DNA of 64,000 nt. Origin: Bacteroidales bacterium (GTDB taxonomy: Bacteria > Bacteroidota > Bacteroidia > Bacteroidales > UBA3824). Below are positions 13,601 to 48,043 of this stretch, one piece after another. Both the position numbers and the translations under genes were made by a program. Each line of letters starts with the position of its first letter. Positions within the stretch are counted from its first letter, which is position 1. The notes under the pieces were generated by a model. That model did no database searches and had not been told where the DNA came from. It saw only the letters and a list, made by a program, of their open reading frames with translations. Where the stretch lies: contig JAKSUC010000002.1 in the NCBI GenBank assembly GCA_024413595.1, positions 35,335 to 99,334 of the forward strand, in the 5' to 3' direction.

Positions 13601-13701
13601 AAAAGTGATACGGGCAAAGTTTCGTACATAACCAAACCAATCACCACAAAGGCTAAAAATGCCATTATCACAGCTATCGGACGTCGTACTAAAAAATCCA
13701 C
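10660..13701 (-). CDS. RND efflux transporter permease (AcrB/HAE1-like), first permease
   Basis: 1013 aa. Starts MDFLVRRPIAVIMAFLAFVVIGL..., a classic ACR_tran N-terminus. Confidence 0.85.
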   Translation of the reverse strand: MDFLVRRPIAVIMAFLAFVVIGLVMYETLPVSLLPDIAIPQITVQASDANKSSQELEKSIIQPIRNNLLQVNGLDEIRSEVRDGIGVINMKFKFGTNTDLAYIEVNEKIDGAMNYLPQGTQRPKAIKASATDIPVFYLNISLKNDNNDKGQFLQMCEVVENIIRRRVEQLPEVAMADMTGVPSQCIMVTPDFNKMHTYGLEINDITNAITNNNREANSMRVKDGIYEYTIKVSTLLSEKEDVENIYITCGERIIQLKEICNISVSTLQEQGMSLANGKRVVTLAVIKQSDEGLDAMRDKITEIVDQFKIQFPNLDFEICRNQTELLDYTISNLKQNLIIGFILIILVAMLFMGGARTSLVIGISMLSSIIITFIPFYIGGRSLNIVSLSGLILVVGMMIDNALIVSENIAQWHQRGKTLRVSCSGATSEMISPLLSSSLTTVAVFIPLVFIDGMAGAIFSDQAFAITTGLGVSYIVGIMLLPVIYRVIMARKVAKKGADVENHIQRISTGYNKIFDFINNHKTIVLTIALLSLPICWIMFTVINKSKMPQIDYYEQTAKIEWNSEINIEENRYRTESLLKAVGNSADEYTAYIGVQDYVVDAGNELSKTEAELYWKTSSPDSIEPLTNNVKNWLSKNYPQASIKFAPPTTIFEKLFETSEADIVAQFNKRGQDPSIDEIKDLQNQIKQATKEYHSSNLAFVPEKTLIIDRRALELYHVDIATLQNYLSNLISGSQITELHSYSSYMPIYLSGNAEKVEETIQNGTISVYDNENRETIYVPIRQLVKEVYTDELKTITAGKNNDYIPIYFYDIENADNLCNTIRNIVNKDNRWEVDFSGAFFSNKEMMKQLIIILFISLMLMYFIMCAQFESFKQPLIVLMEIPIDASFALIVLWLCGVSINLMSGIGIIVSCGIIVNDSILKLDTINELRRKGMELTEAVHTAGQRRLRAIVMTSLTTIGATLPILFTNDMGSELQRPLAIAMISTMTIGTFVSLFIIPLIYTIIEKKNIKNE

Positions 13702-13737
13702 GAAATTTTAATTTAAATGTTTATAAATATCTGTAGA

Positions 13738-14781
13738 TTAGTAAATTATTTCGGTTTTGTCGGCTAAATAAGTGTTGCCAGAAACTATAACAGAGTCGCC
13801 GGCTTCAATGCCTGAAATTATTGCAATATTATCGCTATTTTCGATTGAAGTTTCAACATAACACCATCTTGCCAAACCATCTTTGGCTGTAAATACTACA
13901 GGACGATTTGAACGTAAAACCACTGCACTTTTAGGAACTGAAATAAATTCTCCAGCATTTTTACTTATTTTGATACTAACATTCATTCCTTCAAACAATT
14001 CAGAACCATTATTTACAGTAGCTTTTACGCGAACCATTCCGTTATTTTCTACAAATGGATTTATTTCTTTTATTTGACCTGTCCATTTTTTGTCGGGCAT
14101 TGAATATGCCGAAATTTCAACCTTGCCACCTACGGTAACCATGTTTAATTCATTTTCAATAACTGTAAATTCTACACACATAGAATTTTGATCTATTATT
14201 CGGCAAAATGGTTTTGAATTTGAAGTTAAATTACTAACACGGTCATTTAAATTTGCAACCACGCCACTTATTGGAGCTTTTATGGTGCTATGTTCGTAAT
14301 CGTATTTTGTTGAATTATAAGATGATAGTGATTGTAGATAACCACTTTTGATTTCAGCCAATTTTATAATATTATCTGGAATATTAGTTGAGTCGGGATT
14401 ATAACCTTGACCAATAATAGTTTCCTTCATATTTAGTTTTGATTGTTCAAGATTTGCTTGAGCCGACTCAAATTGATTTTTTAATTTATAAGCGTCTAAT
14501 TTTGCGATAGTTGTTCCTGCTTGAACATGTCTACCATTATTGGTAAAAATTTCAGAAATTGTTCCGCTTACTTCCCAATAAATATCTGCATATTTGTCGG
14601 CTGTAATTTTTCCATTGCTTACAATTTCTAAAGCAAATTGACCTTTTTTTGCAACTTCGGTTGTAACTTGTTGACGATCTTCAACAAGAATATTTTGTTG
14701 ACGTTCTTCTTCTGGCTTTTCTTTTGACGAACAAGAAGCCAAAATCAATGAGATTGAGGTTAGTATTAATCCGTATTTCAC
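13738..14781 (-). CDS. efflux RND periplasmic adaptor (MFP/HlyD family) lipoprotein
   Basis: 347 aa. GTG start (cac at 14779-14781), lipobox LILASC, and barrel-sandwich/beta-barrel adaptor-like sequence. First gene of the efflux operon. Confidence 0.8.
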   Translation of the reverse strand: MKYGLILTSISLILASCSSKEKPEEERQQNILVEDRQQVTTEVAKKGQFALEIVSNGKITADKYADIYWEVSGTISEIFTNNGRHVQAGTTIAKLDAYKLKNQFESAQANLEQSKLNMKETIIGQGYNPDSTNIPDNIIKLAEIKSGYLQSLSSYNSTKYDYEHSTIKAPISGVVANLNDRVSNLTSNSKPFCRIIDQNSMCVEFTVIENELNMVTVGGKVEISAYSMPDKKWTGQIKEINPFVENNGMVRVKATVNNGSELFEGMNVSIKISKNAGEFISVPKSAVVLRSNRPVVFTAKDGLARWCYVETSIENSDNIAIISGIEAGDSVIVSGNTYLADKTEIIY

Positions 14782-15432
14782 TTTTTTTATTTAATTAGAT
14801 GATTATTAGTTTTTTTCAAATTAATAGTTAGAATAGATTTATAATTAATTAACACGACAAACTTAGTTAATTTTTTATTAACTAACTATTTTTTGAGATT
14901 TTTTTTTAATAAAAAATGTTAAATGAAATAATGTTTTTAATTCAGTATTTAGTGTTATAAAATATAAAAAAGGAGAAAAATTTATTTTCTCCTTTTTTAA
15001 TTATTCATGAATTAACTAAAAAGCCATACCTTCCACCGAATAAACAATCGGTTTTTCTTTAGAATTTGTTTTAACATAAATTTCGCGAACAAATTCTTCT
15101 GGTTTATCGGTTTTGAAAGATACTGAAACTATTGCAGAATCAGACTTTTTAATTACAGATTTGTCAATTTTTGCAGTAGTACATTCACAAGATGTAAAAA
15201 TTGTATCAATTTTCATTTCTACTAAACTATCATTTTTCAATACAAACTGAGTTTTCATAGTATCCGAAAAAGGGAAACGTCCAAACGAAAAACGGTTTTC
15301 ATTTTGATTATCAGCAATATTTATATTTGTTGTATCAATTCCCAAACGTTCACAAATTGTACGAATATATAGGTCTTTGATTTTGGGATTTTGAACTGGA
15401 TTACCAATTAGAATTACGCGATTGTTTTCGTC
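14664..15432. repeat. segmental duplication block, copy 1 (MFP 5' end, intergenic region, terminator, DUF1573 and the thioredoxin-fold gene 3' half)
   Basis: By-eye alignment shows near-identity with 17641-18403. The 15016-15432 part is also near-identical to 21248-21659. Confidence 0.85.
14971..14993 (-). terminator. rho-independent terminator after cassette 1
   Basis: AGGAGAAAA-attta-TTTTCTCCT flanked by A6 and T6 runs. It is 23 nt downstream of the stop of the 15016..15879 gene. Confidence 0.8.
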
Positions 15433-15879
15433 AAGAAGGAAACATCTAAATTGTTCTTTATCAGGAAAATGATTTAATTTGTTAAAAGAATCATTTATAT
15501 CAATACAAGTTGGATAATTATAATCGGATGTAATAATTTCAAACAAAGCTTCACTTTGACGTTTTGGACTTATATATTTTAAAATCAAAACATTATTATT
15601 AGTAAGAGATAATATATTTTGATTTAAAGTTTTCCATTCGTGCAACTTTAATTGACAACCTATGCAACCTTTTGGATCTGTATAAGTAACAATTTTTAGT
15701 TTATTATCATTGCAATTTATCTTTAAAGTATCATAACCAGATAAAAAAATAGAGCTATCAGAAAAAATAATCTCTTTATTACTCCAATCTTTTATAAGTT
15801 GTTCTATATCATTCTTTACTTGATTTTGACAAGAAATACAAATAAATATAGACAAAATTATAAAGTAAAACTTTTTCAT
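15016..15879 (-). CDS. cassette 1: thioredoxin-fold (TlpA/redoxin-like, CxxC) lipoprotein fused to a DUF1573 domain
   Basis: 287 aa. Lipobox FICISC, the redoxin pattern KIVTYTDPKGCIGCQ and FLLDENNRVILIG, and a C-terminal DUF1573-like beta-sandwich (FSFGRF...FVLKNDS...TSCECTTAKID...). Confidence 0.7.
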   Translation of the reverse strand: MKKFYFIILSIFICISCQNQVKNDIEQLIKDWSNKEIIFSDSSIFLSGYDTLKINCNDNKLKIVTYTDPKGCIGCQLKLHEWKTLNQNILSLTNNNVLILKYISPKRQSEALFEIITSDYNYPTCIDINDSFNKLNHFPDKEQFRCFLLDENNRVILIGNPVQNPKIKDLYIRTICERLGIDTTNINIADNQNENRFSFGRFPFSDTMKTQFVLKNDSLVEMKIDTIFTSCECTTAKIDKSVIKKSDSAIVSVSFKTDKPEEFVREIYVKTNSKEKPIVYSVEGMAF

Positions 15880-16886
15880 TTATTTTCTAAATTAATTTCA
15901 TCTAAATCTAAATATCCAAGTTGAATTTCATCGTCAAATGTAAAAATTAAACGATTATTACTTTCATCATAACAGAAATTTTTAATATTATAACCAACAT
16001 CAAATGTTGAAATATACTCACCGTTTTTATTAAAAACAATGCATTTTGTTGTAATTATTGGGTTTTGCTCAAATTTTCCACCATTGTAGATACAAACTAG
16101 ATATTTATTGGTAAAAAGAGAGTTCCCAAAACATATTAAACCTTCTTCATCCCAATCTGGACCATAAATATTACTTATTAAATTACCATTAAAATCAGCT
16201 ATACTAATCAAATCATACCATATATTACATTCTGCATAAATACTATCTTTATACGAAACTGCTAAAACAAAACGATTTTGTTTAAATTCTTTATGAAAAT
16301 TATTAAATAATTCAATTTTTCCTGATTTAATATTCCATTTTCCTGTTAATGCAGTTGTTTTATTATACCCAATTTCTGCCATAACTCGACATAAAGAAAA
16401 TGTATCATTAGCGTAAATGTATTGTAGTGGATAATTGTCATTTGAGATATGGTATTTTTCAATAGGAGAAAATCTATTATTGATTAAAAGGCTATCTAAT
16501 TTATAAGCTAAAATTTCACATTTTCCACCATCTTGAACATATATTTCGCGAGTAATTTCATTCCAAGATAATTCTCCAGGAATAGTTATTTCATTTGGAC
16601 TTTGTCCTATATTTCCAAATGGTAATACATAATTAAAATTATTTTTGTTAAATAAATGAATTACAGATTCTAACGATTTCGTATCTTTTATAGCTAAATA
16701 TTCACCTATTATGTATGGTACAGAACTATTACTAAAGTAAATCGTATCTATATTAATTTTATGAATTAATTGATTTACATTAATTATATTGTTGCGTTTC
16801 GTTTGATAAATCTCAGTTTTTGAATTATTTTGACAAGCAATAGTTGTAATTAAAATAATCAAAATAAATATCTTTTTCATACTCAA
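15876..16886 (-). CDS. cassette 1: 6-bladed beta-propeller-type lipoprotein (BF3164-like family)
   Basis: 336 aa. Lipobox TTIAC and the motif FGNIGQSPNEI, shared as G-x-GP-x-E/D with the paralogs at 18864, 22127 and 28645. ATGA overlap with the downstream gene. Confidence 0.6.
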   Translation of the reverse strand: MSMKKIFILIILITTIACQNNSKTEIYQTKRNNIINVNQLIHKINIDTIYFSNSSVPYIIGEYLAIKDTKSLESVIHLFNKNNFNYVLPFGNIGQSPNEITIPGELSWNEITREIYVQDGGKCEILAYKLDSLLINNRFSPIEKYHISNDNYPLQYIYANDTFSLCRVMAEIGYNKTTALTGKWNIKSGKIELFNNFHKEFKQNRFVLAVSYKDSIYAECNIWYDLISIADFNGNLISNIYGPDWDEEGLICFGNSLFTNKYLVCIYNGGKFEQNPIITTKCIVFNKNGEYISTFDVGYNIKNFCYDESNNRLIFTFDDEIQLGYLDLDEINLENK

Positions 16887-16895
16887 AATATTAAT

Positions 16896-16940
16896 TTTAT
16901 AGTTCGCTTGTAAATATTAATATCACAAGCAAACTATAAA
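16896..16940 (-). promoter_or_regulatory. intercistronic stem-loop directly 3' of peptide gene 1
   Basis: The 16-bp arms at 16896-16911 and 16925-16940 pair fully except for one position. That position is C.A on the plus strand but G.U on the minus (sense) strand. Confidence 0.65.
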
Positions 16941-16958
16941 ATATTAATTTATAATCAA

Positions 16959-17183
16959 TTATCTAGGACATAAATTTGCATTTAATAAGTCATTACGATG
17001 ACCATTACAATCACATCCGCCAGTCCAATCTTTACAACCATATGGACAACCACTTTCCCCTTGTGCCAAAAGTTCTACATTTTCCATTTGTAATTCAGAC
17101 AAATTATTATTATTATTGTTTATTTGGAATACGCCAAACACTACTGCAACTGCAACTGCTACCGATATAATTAATTTTTTCAT
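16959..17183 (-). CDS. cassette 1: NVEALA-motif small Cys-rich secreted peptide
   Basis: 74 aa: MKKLIISVAVAVAVVFGVFQ, poly-N, LSELQMENVELLAQGE, then the core SGCPYGCKDWTGGCDCNGHRNDLLNANLCPR (5 Cys). Confidence 0.8.
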   Translation of the reverse strand: MKKLIISVAVAVAVVFGVFQINNNNNNLSELQMENVELLAQGESGCPYGCKDWTGGCDCNGHRNDLLNANLCPR

Positions 17184-17505
17184 TTTTGTATAAAATTTGT
17201 GAATTTTCTCAGACTATGATAAATTTTTATCTCTAAGAAAAATTAATAAATAAATTTATAAAAAAAGATACACTTAAAAATTTTAGTTAAGTGTCGTTAT
17301 CGCACATTAATTTCTTGAATTATGTTGACAACTTTTTGGATGGTTAATACGTTTAAGTTTTCGTAGCTTTATTATTTAAAGTTAGACAATAGGGGAAATG
17401 GTTGAGAAGTTTGGAGGACGTCCGCAATCACTCCCCTTTTTTTATAACCATATTTTTCTTAATGATTACGAAACAAATGTATAGTAGTAATTTTACATTT
17501 CCAAA
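17184..17505 (-). promoter_or_regulatory. promoter plus ~280-nt conserved 5' leader of peptide gene 1 (copy A)
   Basis: On the minus strand, TTTG (17502-17505) and TAcaTTTG (17474-17481) are separated by a 20-nt spacer. The leader holds two conserved hairpins: ACACTTAA/TTAAGTGT at 17270-17294, and AGGGGA...TCCCCT at 17391-17437 followed by T7 on the plus strand. It is roughly 90% identical by eye to 20838-21157 and 24086-24409. Confidence 0.6.
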
Positions 17506-17640
17506 TATTTTTTCATCTTTTTTTTATTTTTTTGCGTATTGAATATAAAATATTGATTATTAATTAGTATTATACAAAAAATAGAATAATATTCGAAAAT
17601 ATATTGATTACACAAATTTAAATAACCACATTTTTTGTAG

Positions 17641-17758
17641 TAACTTGTTGACGGTCTTCAATAAGAATGTTTTGTTGACGTTCTTTTTCTGGCTTTTCTT
17701 TTGAAGAACAAGAAACCAGAATCAAAGAGATAGTTGATAGTATTAATCCGTATTTCAC
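17641..17758 (-). pseudogene. duplicated 5' fragment of the MFP adaptor gene
   Basis: The minus strand reads (GTG)KYGLILSTISLILVSCSSKEKPEKERQQNILIEDRQQVTT, then diverges and stops. It matches the first ~41 codons of the 13738..14781 gene, and the upstream region is duplicated as well. Confidence 0.85.
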
Positions 17759-17941
17759 TTTTTTATATATTAGATGATTATTAGTTTTTCAAATTAATAG
17801 TTAAAATAGATTTATAATTAATTAACACGATAAACTTAGTTAATTTTTTATTAATAAACTATTTTTTGCGATTTTTTTTAATAAAAAATGTTAAATGAAA
17901 TAATGTTTTTAATTCAATATTTAGTGTTAAAAATATAAAAA

Positions 17942-17964
17942 AGGAGAAAAATTTATTTTCTCCT
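17942..17964 (-). terminator. rho-independent terminator after cassette 2 (duplicate of 14971-14993)
   Basis: Same AGGAGAAAA-attta-TTTTCTCCT hairpin with flanking A and T runs. Confidence 0.8.
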
Positions 17965-17986
17965 TTTTTAATTATTTATGAATTAA

Positions 17987-18187
17987 CTAAAAAGCCATAC
18001 CTTCCACTGAATAAACAATAGGTTTTTCGTTAGAATTTGTTTTAACATAAACTTCACGCGAAAACTCTTCAGGTTTATCGGTTTTGAAAGTTACAGAAAT
18101 AATTGCAGAATCAGACTTTTTAATTACAGATTTGTCAATTTTTGCAGTAGTACATTCACAAGATGTAAAAATTGTATCAATTTTCAT
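17987..18187 (-). CDS. cassette 2: DUF1573 C-terminal segment, cut off from the thioredoxin-fold ORF by an in-frame TAA
   Basis: 66 aa, nearly identical to residues 222-287 of the cassette 1 fusion protein. It is in frame with 18209..18862 across a TAA at 18209-18211. Confidence 0.6.
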   Translation of the reverse strand: MKIDTIFTSCECTTAKIDKSVIKKSDSAIISVTFKTDKPEEFSREVYVKTNSNEKPIVYSVEGMAF

Positions 18188-18208
18188 TTCTAATAAACTA
18201 TCATTTTT

Positions 18209-18862
18209 TTAAACAAACTGAGTTTTCATTGTATCCGAAAATGGAAAACGTCCAAATGAAAAACGGTTTTCTTTTTGATTTTCAGCAATATTTATATTTG
18301 TTGTATCAATTCCCAAACGTTCGCAAATTGTACGAATATATAGGTCTTTGATTTTAGGATTTTGAACTGGATTGCCAATAAGAATTACGCGATTGTTTTC
18401 GTCTAATAAAAAACAATGAAAACGTTCATCTGACGGAAAATTATTTAGTATGTTTAGAGAATCGTTATAATCAATGAAAATAGGATAATCAAAACCACTA
18501 GTTTTAAGAATAGTTTTGAAATTTCGTGTCTGAATAATATCATCTTTAGGATTAAATGTTATAATAGTTGGACATTTGTTATCAGAAAGTTTCATAATTT
18601 GTTTAATAAAATTATTCCAAACTTCTAATTTTAATTTACAACTTGAACATCCAGAAGAATCTATATATCTAAGCAATTTTACTTTACTTTTGACTTCTAA
18701 TATATTATTGTCTTTATTTGTTGTATAAAAATTTATATCTTGTGGAAATTCTATTTTTTTATTTGTCCATTGCGCAAATAAATCATAAGATTTTTTTGCT
18801 GTATCATTACAAGATATTAATGTTATAATTAAGACAAATATTAATACAAATTTAGTTTTCAT
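18209..18862 (-). CDS. cassette 2: thioredoxin-fold (CxxC) lipoprotein, truncated within the DUF1573 domain
   Basis: The likely start is MKTKFVLIFVLIITLISC (ATG at 18860-18862), since the track ORF extends to 18889. CxxC motif SGCSSCKLKL. The C-terminal half is identical to cassettes 1 and 3. Confidence 0.65.
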   Translation of the reverse strand: MKTKFVLIFVLIITLISCNDTAKKSYDLFAQWTNKKIEFPQDINFYTTNKDNNILEVKSKVKLLRYIDSSGCSSCKLKLEVWNNFIKQIMKLSDNKCPTIITFNPKDDIIQTRNFKTILKTSGFDYPIFIDYNDSLNILNNFPSDERFHCFLLDENNRVILIGNPVQNPKIKDLYIRTICERLGIDTTNINIAENQKENRFSFGRFPFSDTMKTQFV

Positions 18863-18863
18863 T

Positions 18864-19859
18864 CTATTCGTATTTGAATTTAACAACACTAAATTCTGGT
18901 GTTACAGCATAAATACATTTCTTGTTTTCATCAATACAAAAATTAAAAATTTGAGTATCCAAATTAAATATTTTAATTGGATTACCTTCGTAATCAAAAA
19001 CAAATATTTCATTAGAATATTCTTCATCAGCTTCAATAGGTTTTCCACTATATAAAGCCATAATATAATCAGAAGTTGATGCACAGCAAGGATAAGTATC
19101 TCTTTCAATATCACCTTTATGAGGCAAGTTCATTGGACCAATAATTCTTTTATATAATGTTAAATCACTATTATAAATATCAATCATATCATTAATTGAA
19201 TATGCAATTACAATTTTATCACGATGAGAATTATAGCTAATAGTACTATGTAAATAATTAGACCAATTATGTTCTAATGAAAATTCAGGATATAAAACAT
19301 TAGGATATGGAGCATACTTTATATTACTTGTTAATTTGGTATCAAATTCACACAACATCGTATCATTATTAGAATATAATGAAGTAATTAAATTTCCATT
19401 GTTATTCTGAATAAATGATGTTATAGTTTGATCAAATTGAATTTCTTCAATAGGAAGACAACCAATAGTTGTTACAAAGTCATCATATTTATATTTTCTT
19501 ATTAATCGAAAATGAGGCTCTGCAGCCATTACATAATCATCTGTAACAAATATGAAATTACATTGAACACTTTCATTAGGTCCCAATCCACTTGGAACGT
19601 TATATGTTAGAAAATTATTATTATTTAAATTAAATGTTTGAACAAAATAATCTCCTGATCTATTAATTATAAACAAAAGAGAATCTTTTAAATGAATTGA
19701 TAATGGATTCCAAATTGTATCAAGGTTCATTATTTCTCCATGTAATTTTACTTCCTTGAAATCTTCTCTATTTATTCTTATATAATCATTATTCGAGGTA
19801 TTGTTATTACATGAAGAGAAAATGATTAACGAAAATAATAATATTGTTAGCTTTTTCAT
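18864..19859 (-). CDS. cassette 2: 6-bladed beta-propeller-type lipoprotein
   Basis: 331 aa. Lipobox IFSSC and motif SGLGPNESVQC. Paralog of the 15876, 22127 and 28645 genes. Confidence 0.6.
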   Translation of the reverse strand: MKKLTILLFSLIIFSSCNNNTSNNDYIRINREDFKEVKLHGEIMNLDTIWNPLSIHLKDSLLFIINRSGDYFVQTFNLNNNNFLTYNVPSGLGPNESVQCNFIFVTDDYVMAAEPHFRLIRKYKYDDFVTTIGCLPIEEIQFDQTITSFIQNNNGNLITSLYSNNDTMLCEFDTKLTSNIKYAPYPNVLYPEFSLEHNWSNYLHSTISYNSHRDKIVIAYSINDMIDIYNSDLTLYKRIIGPMNLPHKGDIERDTYPCCASTSDYIMALYSGKPIEADEEYSNEIFVFDYEGNPIKIFNLDTQIFNFCIDENKKCIYAVTPEFSVVKFKYE

Positions 19860-19861
19860 TT

Positions 19862-20509
19862 TTATATATTTTTAAGTTTATATGCTAGAATTTTTAACGA
19901 CTTTGTATTCATTAATATTCTATTAATCAATTGTTTAGAAATCAATTTAGTTTCTTGAATATTAAGAATTTGATTTAATAAAGATTGAGAAATATTTGCA
20001 TTTTTATCCACAATTAATACAAGTGGCGTTTCTTTATCATAAATCATTGGTTTTGTGTTAAATTTATAAAATTTAAAATATTCATTAGGTGAAGAATTTG
20101 GAATTTTATATTGAATATACATTTTTAAATTACTAAACACAAATAAAATATCATTATTTCTATATCCAGTTTTAAGAATATCAATATTTTCATTACATAT
20201 AAACTTACCAAAACCGATAGATAATTTTTGCCTCATTTCATAATTTTCATTATAAATAATTTCAGGCGTAGTAAAATTGCTTGATTTTTTTAAATCATAA
20301 TAGTTAATAGAAATATTCCCTATTAATGACTTAAAATCAATTGTTTGTTCTATAGAATTAAAAATAGCTTTTTTATAAATTTCGTATGTCTTTAAAAATT
20401 CTGCACTATATACTTCTTCAGTTTCTTCTTGCTCTTGAGCTAATAAATACTTATTATTAAATAGTAATAATAAAAGAATAAATGTATTTAATATAATTTG
20501 CTTGTTCAT
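19862..20509 (-). CDS. cassette 2: secreted accessory protein of unknown function
   Basis: Likely ATG at 20507-20509 (MNKQIILNTFILLLLLF...LLAQ signal). The C-terminal stretch PLVLIVDKNANISQSLLNQILNIQETK aligns with PLALVLNKKNNIPEDIINRVLSVKDTK of the 23155..23748 protein. Confidence 0.5.
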   Translation of the reverse strand: MNKQIILNTFILLLLLFNNKYLLAQEQEETEEVYSAEFLKTYEIYKKAIFNSIEQTIDFKSLIGNISINYYDLKKSSNFTTPEIIYNENYEMRQKLSIGFGKFICNENIDILKTGYRNNDILFVFSNLKMYIQYKIPNSSPNEYFKFYKFNTKPMIYDKETPLVLIVDKNANISQSLLNQILNIQETKLISKQLINRILMNTKSLKILAYKLKNI

Positions 20510-20523
20510 ATTATTTAAATATA

Positions 20524-20559
20524 ACAATTTTGGTAATAATCAATTATTACCAAAATTGT
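20524..20559 (-). promoter_or_regulatory. intercistronic stem-loop directly 3' of peptide gene 2
   Basis: Perfect 16-bp arms ACAATTTTGGTAATAA / TTATTACCAAAATTGT with a 4-nt loop. Confidence 0.7.
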
Positions 20560-20576
20560 ATTAAATTATCATTATT

Positions 20577-20837
20577 TTACATATGTCCTGTAATACATGG
20601 ATATGGACAACTACCATTGCATTTACTCCCACTTTGCGCACCAACACCTACAACATCACACCATTTATTATTGAAAAAAGCATTCTTACAACAATTATTA
20701 ATTATTTCACCATAATCAGCTAATGCTTCTAAATTATCCATTTGTAATTCACTCAATTGATTATTATTTTGATTAGCTTGGAATACACCAAATGCACTTG
20801 CTGCAATAAAAGCTACAGCGATAAATAATTTTTTCAT
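20577..20837 (-). CDS. cassette 2: NVEALA-motif small Cys-rich secreted peptide
   Basis: Likely start MKKLFIAVAFIAASAFGVFQANQNNNQLSELQMDNLEALADYGE (ATG at 20835-20837), then the core IINNCCKNAFFNNKWCDVVGVGAQSGSKCNGSCPYPCITGHM (6 Cys). Confidence 0.8.
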   Translation of the reverse strand: MKKLFIAVAFIAASAFGVFQANQNNNQLSELQMDNLEALADYGEIINNCCKNAFFNNKWCDVVGVGAQSGSKCNGSCPYPCITGHM

Positions 20838-21157
20838 TTTTGTTAAAATTTTGCATTTTCTTAGACTTTGAATATTTTTTACGTCCAAGAAAAAAATTAA
20901 TAATTTAATAGATAAAATAAATCCACTTAAAAATATAAATTAAGTGTCGTTATCGCACATTAATTCCTTGAATTATGTTGACAACTTTTTGGATGGTTAA
21001 TACGTTTAAGTTTTCATAGCTTTTTATTTAAAGTTAAACAATAGGGGAGATGGTTGAGAAGTTTGGAGGACGTCCGCAATCACTCCCCTTTTTTTATAAC
21101 CATATTTTTCTTAATGATTACGCAACAAATGTATAGTAGTTATTTTACATTTCCAAA
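20838..21157 (-). promoter_or_regulatory. promoter plus conserved 5' leader (copy B)
   Basis: On the minus strand, TTTG (21154-21157) and TAcaTTTG (21126-21133) with a 20-nt spacer. Same hairpins as copy A. Confidence 0.6.
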
Positions 21158-21247
21158 TATTTTTTCAATATTTTTTTGTTTTTTTAATATGATATATAAT
21201 TTTTTGATTATAAAATATTTAGTTTAACTGTTTTATTAAATTATGTA

Positions 21248-21451
21248 TTAATTTACAGCCACTCCATCTACTATATAGACGATCGGTTTTTCTTTAGAAT
21301 TCGTTTTTACATAAACTTCACGCGAAAATTCTTCTGGTTTGTCGGTTTTGAAAGATACTGAAACTATTGCAGAATCAGACTTTTTAATTACAGATTTGTC
21401 AATTTTTGCAGTAGTACATTCACAAGATGTAAAAATTGTATCAATTTTCAT
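21248..21451 (-). CDS. cassette 3: DUF1573 C-terminal segment after an in-frame TAA
   Basis: 67 aa, near-identical to 17987..18187 except for the last residues (VYIVDGVAVN). In frame with 21473..22126 across a TAA at 21473-21475. Confidence 0.6.
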   Translation of the reverse strand: MKIDTIFTSCECTTAKIDKSVIKKSDSAIVSVSFKTDKPEEFSREVYVKTNSKEKPIVYIVDGVAVN

Positions 21452-21659
21452 TTCTAATAAACTATCATTTTTTTAAACAAACTGAGTTTTCATTGTATCC
21501 GAAAATGGAAAACGTCCAAATGAAAAACGGTTTTCTTTTTGATTTTCAGCAATATTTATATTTGTTGTATCAATTCCCAAACGTTCGCAAATTGTACGAA
21601 TATATAGGTCTTTGATTTTGGGATTTTGAACGGGATTGCCAATAAGAATTACGCGATTG
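21248..21659. repeat. homogenised 3' block, copy 3
   Basis: Near-identical by eye to 15016-15432 and 17987-18403. Confidence 0.8.
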
Positions 21660-22126
21660 GAAGAATCGAGAAGGAAACAATGTAAATATTCTTCTGGAGG
21701 AAAACTATTTAAATTAAATATTTCATTTTTTTGATCTATAACAACAGGATGTTCAAAATAAGCCATTCTTAAATTAGTATGAATTTCTCTAATTTCATTT
21801 TTTTTATTTTTAGGATTAATTATAAATAATTTAGCGCACCTATTATTTGTTTTTGCATCAATATAACTAAAAAAATTATTCCAATCAGTTAAACGCATTT
21901 TGCAATTTGTACAGCCAGTTGAATCAATGTAAAACAATATTTTTAGTTCATTATTACTATTATACTCAATTGTATCAGTACCTAATTTCGTAAATATTAA
22001 ATTAGGTAATTTTATTGTTTTATTTGACCATTCATTAACAAGATTTATATAATTCTGTTTATTGTTACAAGAAAATAGTAAACATAATATAAATACAAAT
22101 GAAATTAAACTATAAAATTTATTCAT
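21473..22126 (-). CDS. cassette 3: thioredoxin-fold (CxxC) lipoprotein, truncated within the DUF1573 domain
   Basis: 217 aa. Lipobox LLFSC and CxxC motif TGCTNCKMRL. The divergent N-terminal half is followed by a C-terminal half identical to the other copies. Confidence 0.65.
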   Translation of the reverse strand: MNKFYSLISFVFILCLLFSCNNKQNYINLVNEWSNKTIKLPNLIFTKLGTDTIEYNSNNELKILFYIDSTGCTNCKMRLTDWNNFFSYIDAKTNNRCAKLFIINPKNKKNEIREIHTNLRMAYFEHPVVIDQKNEIFNLNSFPPEEYLHCFLLDSSNRVILIGNPVQNPKIKDLYIRTICERLGIDTTNINIAENQKENRFSFGRFPFSDTMKTQFV

Positions 22127-23179
22127 TTATTTATAATTAAATTTAACAATACTAAACTCTGGAGTTTCGGCAATTGCATAAATTGAATTATTTTCTTCAT
22201 CAACAGCCAAACCATATATGTCAATATTTAAATTGAAAACCTTAAAAGGATTTCCTTCATAATCAAAAACTAATATTTGATTTGGAATAGGATTATCTGG
22301 TGCAGTTTTCCCCTCATAATAGCAACACCAAATATATTTTTTTGTTAAACAACATAATACACATGATCTTTTAGTAGAAGAATTAGGACTTAAAAAGTTA
22401 TCACGTTCTACCATTAATGGTTCAAATCCTATTGGTCCGTGAACACGAGATATTAAATTTAAATCATTATCATAAATATCAAATATGTCTGTAAAAGCAT
22501 AAGGAACAACTATTCGTTCGTTGCTATCATTATAATAAATTCGATTTTGGAATGCAAATTTGTTCTCAATGTCTTTATAATTTTTAGAACTTTCCAAAAT
22601 AGGATATGGAGTATGTTTATCTATTTTATTACCTAAACTATCAAATAATGTTATGGTATTACTTGTATCAATATGACTTGCACCAACTAAATTATTATTA
22701 GATAACAAAACCATTGCGGTTGGATAATAATCTTTTGCTTCGTATGTTGCTATATTACAAATATGCGATTTTTCTAAAAAGTCTTTTTTAGAATATTTCA
22801 TTAGTTGATTTGTTTGTATACTAAATGACAAAATATAATCTTTCATAATCTGCAAAGACCAACAATCAAGACTTTCATTTGGACCAACACCAAAAGTAAT
22901 ATTTTCACATTTTTTTAATTTTGTCTCAAAATCAAATACTTGAGCAAAATTTTCTTGGGATTTATCTATTAATATTAGATTATTATCTTCAATAAAAATT
23001 TGAGTTGGTTTCCAAATCGAATCAAGATTAACAATCTCATAATCAAGATTTTCAATTGATTGAAAGTCATCATAGGTTATATTTTTGATTGACTTATCAA
23101 GATTATTTTCCGAATTGCAACTACAAATAAATATAGCAATTATTATATAAAAATTTATTTTTCCCATGTTTTTACACAA
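22127..23179 (-). CDS. cassette 3: 6-bladed beta-propeller-type lipoprotein
   Basis: 350 aa (start may be M5 at 23167). Lipobox FICSC and motif FGVGPNESLDC. Confidence 0.6.
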   Translation of the reverse strand: MCKNMGKINFYIIIAIFICSCNSENNLDKSIKNITYDDFQSIENLDYEIVNLDSIWKPTQIFIEDNNLILIDKSQENFAQVFDFETKLKKCENITFGVGPNESLDCWSLQIMKDYILSFSIQTNQLMKYSKKDFLEKSHICNIATYEAKDYYPTAMVLLSNNNLVGASHIDTSNTITLFDSLGNKIDKHTPYPILESSKNYKDIENKFAFQNRIYYNDSNERIVVPYAFTDIFDIYDNDLNLISRVHGPIGFEPLMVERDNFLSPNSSTKRSCVLCCLTKKYIWCCYYEGKTAPDNPIPNQILVFDYEGNPFKVFNLNIDIYGLAVDEENNSIYAIAETPEFSIVKFNYK

Positions 23180-23748
23180 AATGTTAATATTTCAAAATAA
23201 GTAGTATTATTTTTTATATAATTTATATCATTTTTATTTATTTCTTTAGTATCCTTTACTGATAAAACACGATTAATAATATCTTCTGGAATATTATTTT
23301 TTTTATTTAATACTAAAGCTAAAGGTATATATCTATTTGTTTTAAAATCTTGTATTTCAAATGGATATAAAATTATATTAATATTTTGATGCTCTCTTTT
23401 AAATGGAATATATAATGTTCCACGTGCTGTTGTTGTCATAACACAACAGATATCATTTTGATCTATTGCTAACGCAAAAATATGACTTAATGAACTATCA
23501 AAATCTTGATAAAAATAAGTTTTCCCATGAAAAAAGTCACTTTTTTCTTTTAAATTATAAGAAAAAACAAATAATCTTGCTTTTGCATTTAATATAGGAA
23601 TTTTATATTTTATATTACTGTTTTTTAGAATTATTGCGTGCGGATTTACAGATCCAGCTTGTAAACCAAATGATGCAACAGCAACTTCTCCTTGGGCATA
23701 AACATTATAACTTAAAAATACAAATATTAAAATAAAAAATATCTTCAT
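23155..23748 (-). CDS. cassette 3: secreted accessory protein of unknown function (homolog of 19862..20509)
   Basis: 197 aa with signal peptide MKIFFILIFVFLSYNVYAQ and C-terminal similarity to the cassette 2 accessory protein. Confidence 0.5.
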   Translation of the reverse strand: MKIFFILIFVFLSYNVYAQGEVAVASFGLQAGSVNPHAIILKNSNIKYKIPILNAKARLFVFSYNLKEKSDFFHGKTYFYQDFDSSLSHIFALAIDQNDICCVMTTTARGTLYIPFKREHQNINIILYPFEIQDFKTNRYIPLALVLNKKNNIPEDIINRVLSVKDTKEINKNDINYIKNNTTYFEILTFCVKTWEK

Positions 23749-23767
23749 AATAATACGAATAATTTAT

Positions 23768-23802
23768 AATTCTGTTATTGATATTAAATCAATAACAGAA
23801 TT
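23768..23802 (-). promoter_or_regulatory. intercistronic stem-loop directly 3' of peptide pseudogene 3
   Basis: Perfect 15-bp arms AATTCTGTTATTGAT / ATCAATAACAGAATT with a 5-nt loop. Confidence 0.7.
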
Positions 23803-23843
23803 AATCTATAATAAATAGCCTATTATATAATAAGCAAAATTTT

Positions 23844-24085
23844 TTAATTAGGATAACTATCAGGACAACGCTCAGTATATCCAGTACTTGTATACATTAT
23901 ATCACAATACCAATAAGGATTATAATGACATACCATACGACATCCATATGAAGCACTTTCACCTTGTGCCAAAAGTTCAGCATTTTCCATTTGTAATTCA
24001 CTCAATTGATTATTATTTTGATTAGCTTGGAATCACCAAATGCACTTGCTGCAATAAAAGCTACAGCGATAAATAATTTTTTCAT
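23844..24085 (-). pseudogene. cassette 3: NVEALA-motif peptide gene with a 1-nt deletion (frameshift)
   Basis: The span is 242 nt, which is not a multiple of 3. Compared with gene 2 (ggaatacaccaaatgc), this copy reads ggaatcaccaaatgc. The conceptual repair gives MKKLFIAVAFIAASAFGVFQANQNNNQLSELQMENAELLAQGE followed by SASYGCRMVCHYNPYWYCDIMYTSTGYTERCPDSYPN. Confidence 0.8.
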
Positions 24086-24409
24086 TTTTGTTAAAATTTT
24101 GCATTTTCTTAGACTTTGAATATTTTTTACGTCCAAGAAAAAAATTAATAATTTAATAGATAAAATAAATCCACTTAAAAATAAAAATTAAGTGTCGTTA
24201 TCGCACATTAATTCCTTGAATTATGTTGACAACTTTTGGATGGTTAATTCGTTTAAGTTTTCATAGCTTTATTATTTAAAGTTAGACAATAGGGGAAATG
24301 GTTGAGAAGTTTGGTAGACGTACGCAATCACTCCCCTTTTTATTTTTATAACCATATTTTTCTTAATGATTACGTAACAAATTTATGATAGTAATTTTAC
24401 ATTTCCAAA
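24086..24409 (-). promoter_or_regulatory. promoter plus conserved 5' leader (copy C)
   Basis: On the minus strand, TTTG (24406-24409) and TAaaTTTG (24378-24385) with a 20-nt spacer. Same hairpins as the other copies, with clustered substitutions at the tip of the GGGGA hairpin. Confidence 0.55.
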
Positions 24410-24538
24410 TATTTTTTCAACTTTTTTTTTGTTTTTTTTAATATGATATATAATTTTTTGATTATAAAATATTTAGTTTAACTGTTTTATTAAATTATTA
24501 TGTGTGTATTATATAATTTAAATACCAAATAAATGATT

Positions 24539-26230
24539 TTAATTATTAGTCTTAAATAGTTTTTCCATATTTTCCACTTTACTTCGCATTTCGCGAGTAG
24601 CTTCTGACTCAATTTTAATAAATTTATTCATAATTATTTCATATTCAGCCTTTCTGTTTTCAGGCTTAAAATAATTTTCATTTGCATATAACAAATATAA
24701 TAAGTAATGAGGATAAAGTCTATTCGGTAATCTGTGAGACGAACGAATATAATATTTTTCAGCTTCAGAATAATTATTTAAGTTTTGATAACATTCTCCA
24801 ATAACATTAAATATCATAGGATCAGAAAGATAATTAAGACATTTGTTTAATTCTATAATAGCATCTTGATATTTTTCTGTTTTATAAAGCGAATGTCCAT
24901 ATTCATAAAGAAATCTTCCATTCCAATCCATTTTATCTGACATTTCAGCATAATATTTGGCTGCTTTTGTGTAAACTTTCATATTATAAAACATTTGCGA
25001 TTTTTCCCATTTTTGCATTAAATCAATGCGTTCTGAATAAATTGGACGTTTTATAATCATAAATATTGCTAAAATAGAAAGTAAACTAGCTAAAATAATT
25101 TTATGATAAACATAATTTATGTTTTCTGGAATAATTAATCCAATAGTTAAAATAATCAGAAGTACCACAAATGCAGGTATTTGCATTGGGTAAGATGCAA
25201 AGCAAAAAACTAACAACGAAATTATTCCACCAACAAATTGAAATCTCTTATTTTTATGGGCAAAAAATATTGCAAAAACTAAAAATGCAATAATCAATAA
25301 AGTTAACGGAATTCCATATAATATTGCAAATTGTAAATATTCATTAAACGCATAATCAGGAGAAGTGGCAATATTTTCTTCGTTACCAATATTAAAATAT
25401 CCTTTTTTTTCAATAATGTTAGCAAAATATTTTTCTTGAGCGTTGCCGTATGCAGGTGAAAAAATGTCGTGCCCCGAAATTGGAGAATCCATTACAGCTA
25501 AAGTAGAAATTTTCCATAAAAATAATCTACCATTTGCCGACTCGCTTTTCACTTTCCAAATACCTATTCCAGCTAAAAATAATATTATAACACCTATTAT
25601 TAATAATAATTTTTTGTTGATTTTTATTTTGTCAAGATATTTTTTTAAAATTCCTGAGCATAATAAAACATATATGCAACCAAAACAACCTGAAATCCAA
25701 CTTGTTCTACTCATGGTTGATGGCAAAACAATTATTAATAAAACTAATGTAAAAATTAATATATAATATTGCGATAATATATTGATTTTCTGAAATTTAG
25801 TAATATTTTCAGATTTATTTAAATTTTCTTTTTTCACTTTGATATTCAGCCACATATTTAATGCAATAGGAAGTGTAATTGCCAAATATCCGCCTAAAGG
25901 TCCTGGATTATAAAACGAACCTGTTAATTTAAATATAGAGTGATTAGAATAAGAAAAACCGTATAATTGCATCAAAGAATAAAATGCTTCTATACAGCCA
26001 ACTATAACAATACACCATTCTAAAGTGGATAAAATATGTTTTTTTTCAACAAAAAAAATTGCTACTCCTATAATAATAATTGGAAAAATTCCACGTAAAC
26101 AAAATGAATTCCATTGAGAAATTTGCATTATTTCGTCGGATAGTTTTGCTACTCCATAATTTAGCATCAACCAATATATTACGCTAAAAAAGATTAATCC
26201 ACAAAATATTTTTCTAAGTGTATCAGTCAT
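24539..26230 (-). CDS. O-antigen ligase/polymerase-like (Wzy_C-type) membrane protein with C-terminal TPR repeats
   Basis: 563 aa with about 10 TM helices, a loop reading PSTMSRTSWISG, and a soluble TPR-like C-terminus (AAKYYAEM..., YQDAIIELNKCL..., YSEAEKYYIRS). Confidence 0.55.
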   Translation of the reverse strand: MTDTLRKIFCGLIFFSVIYWLMLNYGVAKLSDEIMQISQWNSFCLRGIFPIIIIGVAIFFVEKKHILSTLEWCIVIVGCIEAFYSLMQLYGFSYSNHSIFKLTGSFYNPGPLGGYLAITLPIALNMWLNIKVKKENLNKSENITKFQKINILSQYYILIFTLVLLIIVLPSTMSRTSWISGCFGCIYVLLCSGILKKYLDKIKINKKLLLIIGVIILFLAGIGIWKVKSESANGRLFLWKISTLAVMDSPISGHDIFSPAYGNAQEKYFANIIEKKGYFNIGNEENIATSPDYAFNEYLQFAILYGIPLTLLIIAFLVFAIFFAHKNKRFQFVGGIISLLVFCFASYPMQIPAFVVLLIILTIGLIIPENINYVYHKIILASLLSILAIFMIIKRPIYSERIDLMQKWEKSQMFYNMKVYTKAAKYYAEMSDKMDWNGRFLYEYGHSLYKTEKYQDAIIELNKCLNYLSDPMIFNVIGECYQNLNNYSEAEKYYIRSSHRLPNRLYPHYLLYLLYANENYFKPENRKAEYEIIMNKFIKIESEATREMRSKVENMEKLFKTNN

Positions 26231-28644: not shown

Positions 28645-29685
28645 TTATTTTAATAAACTTTTATAAATTCCCATTTCATTTTTTGAAGAGTCTAATCCTA
28701 TTGCATATATTTCATCATTATGAATAGTAAATGAAGTAATTGGTATATTGGTTTTATATAGTTTTAATATATTACCTTTATAATCTATTTGATATATAAT
28801 GCTATTTACATTACCTTCCGAAACTTCTTTAAACGAATCATTCCAACATAGTGACCAAAAACTATCTTGATAAGCAATCACATACGTAAAATATGTTAAT
28901 TTTTCCTCATTATAAACTATTTCATTATTATTTATTTCAAAATTATTTTTGTCATAATCTTTAAAATAAAGTCTTCTATTTAATTTCATATTATTTATAG
29001 AAACTAAATCTATCATTTTATAGTTTTTATAAGCTATTACTATGTTTTTTTCATTAGCAGAATATGTCGATAGAAATATTTGCATTGTTAGACTAAATTT
29101 TGATAAATCTTTATATTTTTTAGGAATTTTGTAAAAATTATAATTTGAAATAGAATCTTTCTTTCTATCATAATATTGTATTTGATATTCTCCTGTTTTT
29201 GTGACAACTATAGCTGTATCATTATATAATAAAACATTATTAACCATAAAAAAATCTTTAGGTAAAGGTTTTTCTGTAATGTTTTCTTTACAATTTGAAT
29301 TTACAGAAACTTGTAAATATTTATAATCATCAACTATGTTAATAGCTTTTTCTTCATTTTTACCTTTTGATACTAAAAATGGAATAATGAAATCAGTTGG
29401 TCCTTGTCCTATATTTCCAAATTCTAGAATTAATGTATCTTTATAATATATCTTAAAAAAATTTTTTTTGACTTTTGTAAATTGCTCTGAAACAATAAAT
29501 AATGAATCAAGAAAACAACAATTTGTTGGTATTAATGGTTGTATATTTAATTTCAATGGCTTAAAATTTATTGTTGTTGTATCAATACTTATATTATCTA
29601 TAGGTTCTATTAATTGTTCTGAATTATTAGAACAACTTGTAATGTAAAATAGTAGTAATAATAAACACTTATAATATTTATTCAT
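28645..29685 (-). CDS. cassette 4: 6-bladed beta-propeller-type lipoprotein
   Basis: The likely start is MNKYYKCLLLLLFYITSC (ATG at 29683-29685). The track ORF extension to 29760 runs through a 21-bp-arm hairpin. Motif FGNIGQGPTDF. Confidence 0.6.
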   Translation of the reverse strand: MNKYYKCLLLLLFYITSCSNNSEQLIEPIDNISIDTTTINFKPLKLNIQPLIPTNCCFLDSLFIVSEQFTKVKKNFFKIYYKDTLILEFGNIGQGPTDFIIPFLVSKGKNEEKAINIVDDYKYLQVSVNSNCKENITEKPLPKDFFMVNNVLLYNDTAIVVTKTGEYQIQYYDRKKDSISNYNFYKIPKKYKDLSKFSLTMQIFLSTYSANEKNIVIAYKNYKMIDLVSINNMKLNRRLYFKDYDKNNFEINNNEIVYNEEKLTYFTYVIAYQDSFWSLCWNDSFKEVSEGNVNSIIYQIDYKGNILKLYKTNIPITSFTIHNDEIYAIGLDSSKNEMGIYKSLLK

Positions 29686-29716
29686 AAATAAAATATTTTT
29701 AATTAGTGAAATATTT

Positions 29717-29767
29717 TTAATTAGTGAATAAATATATGATTTTATAATATATTTATTCACTAATTAA
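29717..29767 (-). promoter_or_regulatory. intercistronic stem-loop directly 3' of peptide gene 4
   Basis: Perfect 21-bp arms TTAATTAGTGAATAAATATAT / ATATATTTATTCACTAATTAA with a 9-nt loop. Confidence 0.7.
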
Positions 29768-48040: not shown

Positions 48041-48043
48041 TTT

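Follow-up and report, generated by a model that had tools for sequence, protein, structure and literature searches.

Four small genes of the NVEALA family (g1, g2, the frameshifted pg3, and g4) occur in the stretch of Bacteroidales DNA analysed here, a window of 64,000 nucleotides from contig JAKSUC010000002.1, and each joins a common leader to a Cys-rich core of its own. Recombination breakpoints in this family fall at or inside the leader-coding DNA, and the core is inherited as one unit with the gene of a downstream beta-propeller lipoprotein, separated from the leader by recombination; core and propeller are old lineages inherited together. Recombination or gene conversion keeps the 5′ module, composed of promoter, 5′ untranslated region (5′UTR), and leader, near-identical among the paralogues of the same genome. 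What varies as a unit is the core plus the downstream propeller lipoprotein. A preliminary description of this DNA had missed this, as well as the homogenisation of the leader module suggested below and a conserved accessory set composed of a CxxC lipoprotein, a Wzy_C-TPR protein, an S26 peptidase, and an RND pump. In the literature searched, there appears to be no description of the leader/core reading, of a cognate propeller, or of a 5′ module that recombines. The NVEALA system is widespread in gut bacteria and looks like a family of exported disulfide-rich peptides, most probably polymorphic secreted peptides for interbacterial competition or signalling.

The NVEALA family and its leader

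The six-frame motif search and the open reading frame (ORF) lists of the window contain four leader-bearing small genes, all on the minus strand, and no others (Table 1). The genes had been placed earlier within positions 16959–24085, which holds g1, g2, and pg3; g4 lies approximately 5.7 kb outside this range. The name given to them fits a family that exists and is already catalogued as Pfam PF14055, without a function in its entry; the system-level picture is undescribed in the literature searched. In the Pfam scan, g1, g2, and g4 exceed the gathering cutoff (37.8, 34.6, and 30.0 versus 27 bits), and they match the family in size (approximately 70–90 aa), hydrophobic N-terminus, and motif. 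The 3′ fragment of pg3 alone gives no PF14055 match; its repaired reading aligns through the leader. Variants of the motif in the source genome are NVELLA, NLEALA, or NAELLA. In the NCBI annotation, g2 starts at a TTG at 20888 and is longer than the MKKLF call used here.

The leader follows one plan, in which MKK and a hydrophobic run of approximately 16 residues are followed by a polar N/Q-rich spacer, the amphipathic helix [LM]SDL[QA][LM]EN[VI]E[A/L]L[A/G], the sequence [QED]GE, and the tail. An exhaustive profile search with the 45-aa leader gave 167 representative proteins at E ≤ 1e-3 (clusters at 50% identity), nearly all of 55–150 aa; one of them, P0004 (1022 aa), looks spurious. The tails behind this common leader are very diverse and Cys-rich, so that the leader/core logic proposed from the window holds for the family. 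The word-indexed homologue search was so sparse (g2 returned itself only, propeller B two proteins, and a propeller alignment seven) that the breadth of the family is taken from the exhaustive search.

A hand-made degenerate DNA pattern for MENVEALA matched 67 loci, of which approximately 40 are chance matches in other phyla and approximately 27 belong to Bacteroidales, namely Bacteroides, Phocaeicola, Prevotella, Xylanibacter, Parabacteroides, and Tannerella. The leader hidden Markov model identifies approximately 50 NVEALA genes in the Bacteroidales loci, with up to five per 8 kb. The same pattern had 0 matches in viral contigs, with no sign of phage carriage there, and a genome scan with signal-segment patterns returned no relatives. 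Typical arrangements of NVEALA, propeller, Wzy_C-TPR, and S26 genes are also present in three related loci from other bins, L066 (binned as Oribacterium sp.), L058 (a Tepidanaerobacteraceae metagenome-assembled genome, MAG), and L018 (an uncultured bacterium), probably through mis-binning and possibly through horizontal transfer.

Double-glycine leaders have the consensus LSxxELxxIxGG, and the NVEALA helix likewise carries hydrophobic residues at −4, −7, −12, and −15 relative to its conserved G. Double-glycine bacteriocins or microcins, whose cleavage and export would depend on a C39-peptidase ABC transporter gene at another site in the genome, are nevertheless a scarcely credible identity for these proteins. 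The leader/core junction is ALA-[QED]-G-E with a variable residue preceding the G, so that there is no GG, GA, or GS pair, and a hydrophobic signal-like segment precedes the helix. Furthermore, no C39/ABC transporter gene was found among the Pfam-scanned ORFs of the window, nor among the recurrent-neighbour ORFs and ten large flanking ORFs scanned in approximately 24 related loci. The earlier judgements that the resemblance is only loose and that no C39 peptidase gene is nearby stand for the ORFs scanned, and the double-glycine reading was rejected, as its defining motif and transporter were not found in the sequences scanned.

Recombination at the leader-coding DNA

In the DNA alignment, g2 and pg3 are near-identical from approximately 130 nt 5′ of the ATG through ...CAATTGAGTGAATTACAAATGGA / ...CAAATGGA, save for one T missing from GGTG(T)ATTCC of pg3 (approximately 24034/24033), which splits its reading frame. 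Past the break, pg3 tracks g1 (AAATGCTGAACTTTTGGCACAAGGTGAAAGTG versus AAATGTAGAACTTTTGGCACAAGGGGAAAGTG) through the codons for ENxELLAQGES, even though the signal-segment DNA of g1 and pg3 differs. Both the near-identity and the switch had been noticed before, and a triplet test on the three-way alignment of g1, g2, and pg3, comprising approximately 420 nt of upstream sequence and the leader, bears the switch out. At informative sites, pg3 agrees with g2 at 74/79 on the 5′ side of the break and with g1 at 24/25 on the 3′ side (Fisher 1.2e-17), while the identity between g2 and pg3 falls from 494/513 left of the break to 18/47 right of it. A short run of g1-like sites lies farther upstream and suggests another small tract of conversion.

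The same pattern extends to whole cassettes. In the self-BLAST of the window, the ends of the cassettes are conserved and their middles variable. The 5′ module is 84–96% identical among cassettes A, B, and C (those of g1, g2, and pg3), with the B and C 5′ regions 95.6% identical over 519 nt, and the 3′ half of the CxxC/DUF1573 gene is 76–90% identical. Between these ends, no alignment of the DNA is possible for the core, the extra protein, the propeller, or the first half of the CxxC gene. At the end of cassette B, the first 140 nt of the efflux MFP gene are present as a copy (17618–17758 versus 14660–14781), from which it follows that the array grew when a cassette was duplicated in tandem along with the junction downstream of it.

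Sharp breaks between leader and core recur throughout the family, in isolates and MAGs. In the isolate Xylanibacter muris PMUR, a 1725-nt repeat of 97.7% identity stops exactly where the search pattern has its last base, within the codon for the last Ala of the motif. In a Tannerellaceae MAG, 91% identity over 540 nt is followed by no similarity, and equally sharp breaks are present in Bacteroides sp. ET71, Phocaeicola coprophilus DSM 18228, Parabacteroides sp. An277, and contig L066. These results show that the leader-coding DNA is a general recombination junction, and the earlier proposal that signal segment, NVEALA helix, and core are separately shuffled modules thereby holds well beyond the window.

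A more trivial mosaic would arise from tandem duplication and fast divergence of an unconstrained tail, or from mis-assembly of repeats in a MAG. The window does come from a metagenome-assembled genome, and its cassettes are tandem duplicates that even include a copied fragment of the next gene. However, the phylogenetic incongruence along the gene, the constraint on the cores described below, and the breaks in X. muris PMUR, P. coprophilus DSM 18228, Bacteroides sp. ET71, and Parabacteroides sp. An277 render this explanation very improbable; since the same breaks occur in isolate genomes, an artefact of MAG assembly is excluded.

Leaders are more similar within a genome than between genomes (0.50 versus 0.30, p = 6e-9), whereas core similarity is 0.10 in both comparisons. 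This clustering of the leaders by genome suggests concerted evolution, in which the leader module is homogenised within each genome.

Cores as recurrent families

The four cores of the window do not align together, and the invariant columns end at the leader with the exception of one column, as expected from the earlier description of four unrelated cores. Paralogues within one genome carry unrelated cores. Across genomes, the picture differs. The core of pg3 has relatives in P0008 (z = 12.8), P0087, P0060, and P0053, with z from 6.7 to 12.8, and that of g4 in P0114 (z = 13), P0014, P0037, P0095, P0069, and others. In the case of g1, the relation is weaker and consists of a CPxGC...GCxC framework common to P0031, L031_5719, and L062_1550, and g2 has a single weak relative, P0012. 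Further recurrent core classes are visible by eye among the leader-profile proteins.

With a median tail length of 39 aa, the cores have an even number of Cys residues in 82% of cases, and four is the commonest count (n = 148). They had been called hypervariable, a misleading term; judged by their relatives elsewhere, they are better described as discrete, recurrent families with conserved Cys frameworks. Alignable cores had been named as an outcome that would speak against the initial picture; the cores align in part across genomes, but not between paralogues in one genome. Because the Cys frameworks are conserved and relatives exist in other genomes, the cores are constrained.

Co-inheritance of the core and the propeller lipoprotein

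A propeller gene lies within approximately 100 nt downstream of 28 of approximately 45 NVEALA genes, and most of the remaining genes are followed by DUF4221 or DUF5128/DUF4934 proteins. DUF5128 is a six-bladed propeller family, and several of these downstream proteins also match the propeller profile built here. Over 24 gene pairs, the similarity of the cores correlates with that of the propellers (Pearson Mantel r = 0.67, p ≤ 1e-4), compared with r = 0.16 between leader and propeller. Eight pairs are shared between the top ten core pairs and the top ten propeller pairs, against a maximum of four in 10000 permutations. On ranks, the Mantel correlation is weak (rho 0.12, p = 0.07), since the majority of pairs show no relation; the signal sits in the top pairs and the Pearson version. 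For example, g1 and propeller A both have their best relatives in a Tannerellaceae MAG, in which two propellers (248 and 233 bits) each stand behind an NVEALA gene with the same CPxGC core as g1, and the leaders differ.

The AlphaFold2 (AF2) model of propeller B has six blades, with a predicted local distance difference test (pLDDT) score of 82.7. Its top Foldseek match is a peptidyl-alpha-hydroxyglycine amidating lyase (PAL, 3fvz; E 2.5e-11, TM-score 0.61), and the matches also include Brat/TRIM NHL domains, Lp49, Drp35, and B. fragilis BF0058 (4raa); all are generic NHL-like matches only. Sequence searches of the PDB with the propeller and the CxxC protein returned nothing useful. Among 32 full-length propellers, the median pairwise identity is 16%, and conservation is limited to the lipobox Cys (100%) and a GxGPxE motif; besides this Cys, the Glu of GxGPxE is the sole polar residue conserved at ≥90%, and no shared catalytic set is evident. 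Such low identity, with these two elements alone conserved, favours a binding role for these lipoproteins over enzymes that have an active site in common.

These features also bear on whether the NVEALA proteins are precursors of ribosomally synthesised and post-translationally modified peptides (RiPPs), whose leader would recruit an enzyme, either the propeller or the Wzy_C-TPR protein with its glycosyl/ligase chemistry, to alter the core beyond disulfides. A single leader with many cores, the PAL fold as the best match of the propeller, and the Wzy_C-TPR protein as a conserved neighbour all agree with this alternative. However, the PAL match is generic for NHL-like propellers, which are only 16% identical and show no evident common catalytic set, and with its Sec-type N-terminus, the substrate would be located outside the cytoplasm and thus apart from the usual RiPP enzymes. 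No radical SAM, LanM, YcaO, or other recognised RiPP enzyme family occurs among the Pfam-scanned ORFs of the window and the related loci. RiPP precursors are hence improbable, and the enzymatic version was rejected, as the defining genes and motifs are missing from the ORFs scanned.

A putative cleavage site, accessory genes, and a possible export pathway

Around the end of the leader, the residue preferences are strict (n = 148). Position −1 of the motif is A in 130 proteins, G in 16, S in 1, and T in 1; position −3 is A in 102, L in 20, I in 9, V in 8, and M in 6. A small residue at −1 with A, L, I, V, or M at −3 is the −3/−1 rule of type I signal peptidase, which the leader end therefore obeys. 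Position +1 is Q in 26% of the proteins, which recalls the Bacteroidetes 'Q-rule'. The median length of the hydrophobic run is 16 residues, and small residues occur towards the end of the run.

Only the propeller, CxxC/DUF1573, Wzy_C-TPR, S26, and RND/MFP/OMF genes recur as neighbours. Cassettes often encode the CxxC/DUF1573 lipoprotein. The CxxC motif is kept in 15/16 aligned CxxC-lipoprotein sequences, the exception being a 92-aa fragment, and it aligns in register with the bona fide TlpA-like domains of the window (hhalign E 1.2e-4, probability 55%). Wzy_C-TPR homologues adjoin NVEALA genes in the related loci L037, L041, L044, L058, and L069, and four of these five loci also encode an S26 signal-peptidase paralogue with intact SMxPT, KRxxxxPGD, and GDNxxxSxDS boxes. 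RND, MFP, and OMF genes flank NVEALA genes in L044, L052, L037, L066, and the window; in L044, the S26, NVEALA, propeller, Wzy_C-TPR, MFP, and RND genes lie head to tail on one strand. The pump genes of the window were typed by phmmer from the Pfam-typed homologues (ACR_tran, HlyD, OEP) of L044 and L052, which themselves flank NVEALA loci.

Taken as a whole, a model in which NVEALA proteins are pre-pro-peptides that leave the cytoplasm through Sec, fold with disulfides, and are then pumped out, the propeller being their cognate partner, seems to us to stand slightly better than an even chance. The precursor would be exported by Sec, and the pro-region would be cut at or near the A-x-A-like ...E-A-L-A site by signal peptidase I (LepB) or, where present, by a dedicated S26 paralogue. 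Disulfides would then be formed in the periplasm by the CxxC lipoprotein, and the folded peptide would be extruded by the adjacent RND/MFP/OMF pump. Each core may be bound specifically by its cognate propeller, which would serve either for immunity-like protection or as a chaperone/adaptor.

Alternatively, the NVEALA proteins may stay unprocessed, with the hydrophobic segment as a permanent inner-membrane anchor and the Cys-rich tail docked on the propeller in a structural or sensory envelope complex from which nothing is released. The hydrophobic run lies between signal-peptide and anchor length, core and propeller genes are paired one-to-one and co-inherited, and cleavage is a prediction. 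Small Cys-rich subunits on beta-propellers are known, such as those of the methylamine and quinohemoprotein amine dehydrogenases. Conversely, the −3/−1 small-residue rule is strictly kept at the leader end, and catalytically intact S26 paralogues and tripartite pumps recur beside NVEALA genes. Strong stem-loops behind the peptide gene further suggest that its expression is uncoupled from that of the partner, and frameshifted or truncated peptide genes stand beside intact propellers, as in the pair of pg3 and propeller C. An anchored complex is thus unlikely, though not to the degree of the other alternatives.

Several points weigh against the export-and-maturation model itself. Cleavage, disulfides, export, and biological activity are all inferred, and no paper or experiment on the NVEALA family was found in the literature searched, Bacteroidales reviews included. 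For signal peptidase I, the position of the ALA site approximately 25 residues past the hydrophobic segment would be unusual, cleavage at ALA does not account for the xGE kept after it across core classes, and the window contains no S26 gene. As for disulfide formation, 18% of the cores have an odd Cys count, and the thioredoxin fold of the CxxC protein is weakly supported: the AhpC-TSA Pfam matches of its relatives are sub-threshold, and the AF2 model of the CxxC/DUF1573 protein reached a pLDDT of only 38. To our knowledge, RND pumps are not established as peptide exporters, the MacAB precedent being ABC-type, and a terminator-like hairpin (14965–14999) separates the array from the pump in the window. 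Furthermore, the pathway leaves the role of the Wzy_C-TPR protein unaccounted for, and although specific binding would fit the joint inheritance of core and propeller, it is not proved by it.

As to biological role, a tentative extension of the model, which we regard as possible rather than probable, is that the NVEALA cassettes represent a polymorphic system of peptide toxins and immunity proteins that spans the order Bacteroidales and had gone unrecognised, or else a system of peptide ligands and receptors. Disulfide-knotted peptides of approximately 40 aa would be matured outside the cytoplasm by a dedicated signal-peptidase-I paralogue and the CxxC lipoprotein, exported by the RND-type tripartite pump, and neutralised or recognised by the co-diversifying propeller, and the leader-coding DNA would serve as a recombination handle that swaps core–propeller units between cassettes and strains. 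The frameshifted pg3 beside an intact propeller and the truncated peptide genes elsewhere would fit a retained protective partner, although this is anecdotal. Bacteroidales dominate the human and animal gut, and few of their secreted weapons are known to us, namely BSAPs, bacteroidetocins, BcpT, and effectors of the type VI secretion system (T6SS). A large family without papers in the literature searched (167 clusters by the short leader profile) and with an anonymous Pfam entry now gains testable hypotheses. If true, the pathway would represent a new extracytoplasmic route of peptide maturation and export in Gram-negative anaerobes and a source of new disulfide-rich scaffolds.

Organisation and expression signals of the array

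The locus has a very low G+C content of approximately 23–25%, and all relevant genes lie on the minus strand (Table 1). Each cassette is ordered as promoter-like element, conserved 5′ region of approximately 290 nt, NVEALA gene, strong stem-loop, propeller lipoprotein, and CxxC + DUF1573 lipoprotein. The array begins with the Wzy_C + TPR gene, followed by cassettes C, B, and A and then directly by the MFP/RND/OMF/RND efflux operon. Cassette D, composed of g4 and a propeller, is located 5 kb upstream of the array, past two housekeeping-looking genes.

Table 1. Coordinates of the NVEALA genes, cassette elements, and flanking genes in the window, listed from the upstream end.
Feature	Position	Strand	Remarks
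Cassette D promoter-like element	30220-30281	-	upstream of g4
g4, NVEALA gene, 95 aa	29800-30087	-	core NGESSGGGGSNNCDWGIAEYRVSNYMWENNICSRDCSCSSVACVEVIRRCK; NCBI MCQ2973346.1 'NVEALA domain-containing protein'
Stem-loop 3′ of g4	29717-29767	-	inverted repeat
Propeller D, divergent propeller lipoprotein after g4	28645-29760	-	probable start near 29685
Wzy_C (O-antigen-ligase-like) + TPR membrane protein	24539-26230	-	Pfam Wzy_C 6.3e-12 plus TPR; upstream end of array
Cassette C promoter-like element (TTTG-N20-TAnnTTTG)	24378-24439	-	repeat family D5; conserved 5′ region follows
pg3, frameshifted NVEALA gene	23844-24085	-	1-nt deletion in signal segment; core SASYGCRMVCHYNPYWYCDIMYTSTGYTERCPDSYPN
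Stem-loop directly 3′ of pg3	23767-23803	-	inverted repeat; minimum free energy z = -6.2
Secreted-looking protein, cassette C, 197 aa	23155-23748	-	weakly related to 19862-20527
Propeller C, TolB_like 6-bladed beta-propeller lipoprotein	22127-23179	-	Pfam PF15869 1.5e-17; family-invariant lipobox Cys
CxxC (thioredoxin-like) + DUF1573 lipoprotein gene C	21248-22126	-	split by in-frame TAA; hhalign match to TlpA-like domains of the window
Cassette B promoter-like element	21126-21187	-	TTTG 21157-21154, TACATTTG 21133-21126
g2, NVEALA gene, 86 aa from MKKLF	20577-20837	-	core (DYGE)IINNCCKNAFFNNKWCDVVGVGAQSGSKCNGSCPYPCITGHM
Terminator-like stem-loop 3′ of g2	20524-20559	-	16-bp stem, then T-rich tail; z = -4.2
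Secreted-looking protein, cassette B, 221 aa	19862-20527	-	
Propeller B, TolB_like 6-bladed beta-propeller lipoprotein	18864-19859	-	Pfam 2.1e-20; six blades in AF2 model
CxxC + DUF1573 lipoprotein gene B	17987-18889	-	in-frame TAA as in gene C
Duplicated 5′ end of efflux MFP gene	17618-17758	-	14660-15518 versus 17637-18489 at 90%
Cassette A promoter-like element	17474-17535	-	repeat D5
g1, NVEALA gene, 74 aa	16959-17183	-	core SGCPYGCKDWTGGCDCNGHRNDLLNANLCPR; CPxGC...GCxC relatives
Stable stem-loop 3′ of g1	16894-16942	-	z = -7.9
Propeller A, divergent propeller lipoprotein	15876-16886	-	partner type of CPxGC core class; best matches L062_440_1474 (248 bits), L031_6055_7113 (233 bits)
CxxC + DUF1573 lipoprotein gene A, intact	15016-15879	-	Pfam DUF1573 9.3e-17; CxxC present
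Tripartite efflux pump	6076-14781	-	MFP 13738-14781, RND 10660-13701, OMF 9174-10667, second RND 6076-9177; directly downstream of array

The element TTTG-N20-TAnnTTTG is present in all four cassettes (repeat D5, four copies), the motif being read in the copy of cassette B at 21157–21126, and its match to the Bacteroidetes primary-sigma consensus leads us to take it as a putative promoter. Of 46 family genes, 28 have an unusually stable stem-loop within 80 nt of their 3′ end, and the four window genes are among them (z from −4.2 to −7.9). Such a stem-loop after the gene would be typical of a highly expressed structural gene with lower read-through into the downstream partners. The Rfam scan of the window yielded nothing but one tRNA at gathering score.

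On the opposite strand of the 5′ region, a G+C-rich hairpin (GGGGAG...CTCCCC) followed by T7 occupies 21010–21098 (+), with copies near 17358–17446 and 24262–24350, and could represent an antisense small RNA (sRNA) gene or a 5′UTR structure. The U-rich stretch preceding the hairpin at 21010–21098 matches the FopS sRNA (RF04319) weakly, at 25.2 bits versus a gathering score of 56 (E = 3.3 in a 13.7-kb search), and FopS had no match at gathering score in 20 related loci.

Cassettes B and C alone contain an extra secreted-looking protein between the stem-loop and the propeller. These proteins of 221 and 197 aa have signal-like N-termini and are weakly related to each other; they gave no Pfam/NCBIfam match and no relatives in the related loci examined. 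The CxxC/DUF1573 genes of the same two cassettes share an in-frame TAA (18209–18212 and 21473–21476), where cassette A has TTG. This codon sits exactly between the CxxC and DUF1573 domains, and the DUF1573 part is an intact ORF with its own ATG; the shared TAA may reflect a common pseudogenisation or a domain split spread by gene conversion.

In three genera, a large protein with ricin-type lectin, transglutaminase-core (papain-like), and discoidin domains (L037 5058–8000, L069 2772–4682, and L034 6428–7999) is located beside S26/Wzy_C-TPR/NVEALA genes. It has no counterpart in the window and could be another processing or target-binding component.

Elsewhere, genes resembling those of extracytoplasmic thiol oxidoreductases are unusually frequent in the region covered by the window. 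Two further large proteins, 35618–36961 (-) and 37049–38617 (-), end in TlpA-like thioredoxin domains with a WxxxCxxC motif, and the protein at 54268–55725 (+) has a C-terminal AhpC/TSA thioredoxin-fold domain without WxxxCxxC. An MbnP-like gene followed by a di-haem cytochrome c peroxidase (MauG/MbnH-like) gene is present at 47312–49189 (+), a pair known from copper-related operons and unrelated to the NVEALA finding.

Comparison with known systems

In the same order, bacteroidetocins are peptide toxins with a mature length of 42 aa and four Cys residues in disulfides (PMC11901371). They resemble the NVEALA peptides in order and mature size, but they have a 15-aa double-glycine leader and lack a Sec-like segment, a sequence relation, a propeller partner, and the NVEALA motif.

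A precedent for the proposed pathway is the E. coli enterotoxin STII, which follows a route through Sec, then DsbA, and then MacAB-TolC (PMC5985334). STa and STII share with the NVEALA proteins a small size, a signal segment (putative in NVEALA; with a pro-region in STa), an even number of Cys residues, a periplasmic oxidoreductase (a candidate protein in NVEALA), and a tripartite pump, which is required in the case of the enterotoxins and encoded next door in the case of NVEALA. In contrast, the NVEALA pump is of the RND type and not the MacB ABC type, the candidate oxidoreductase is a dedicated lipoprotein, and many paralogous cores per genome and a cognate propeller are present; the NVEALA route is a proposed one.

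Conotoxin superfamilies and the prochlorosin/Nif11-NHLP leaders likewise combine one leader with many unrelated cores whose Cys frameworks are conserved within classes. However, conotoxins are eukaryotic, and prochlorosins need LanM and a C39 transporter, neither of which was found among the ORFs scanned here.

Compared with CdiA-CT/CdiI and Rhs, the variable part of the NVEALA proteins is a Cys-rich peptide of approximately 40 aa and not an enzyme domain, its export is probably by Sec and not by the type V secretion system (T5SS) or T6SS, and the partner is a propeller lipoprotein of approximately 340 aa, with toxicity and immunity putative. Nevertheless, these systems share with NVEALA a conserved N-terminus, a junction motif that is the site of recombination (VENN in CdiA), and a variable C-terminus. 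They also have in common tandem arrays, the presence of degenerate copies, and a cognate gene directly downstream that moves together with the variable part.

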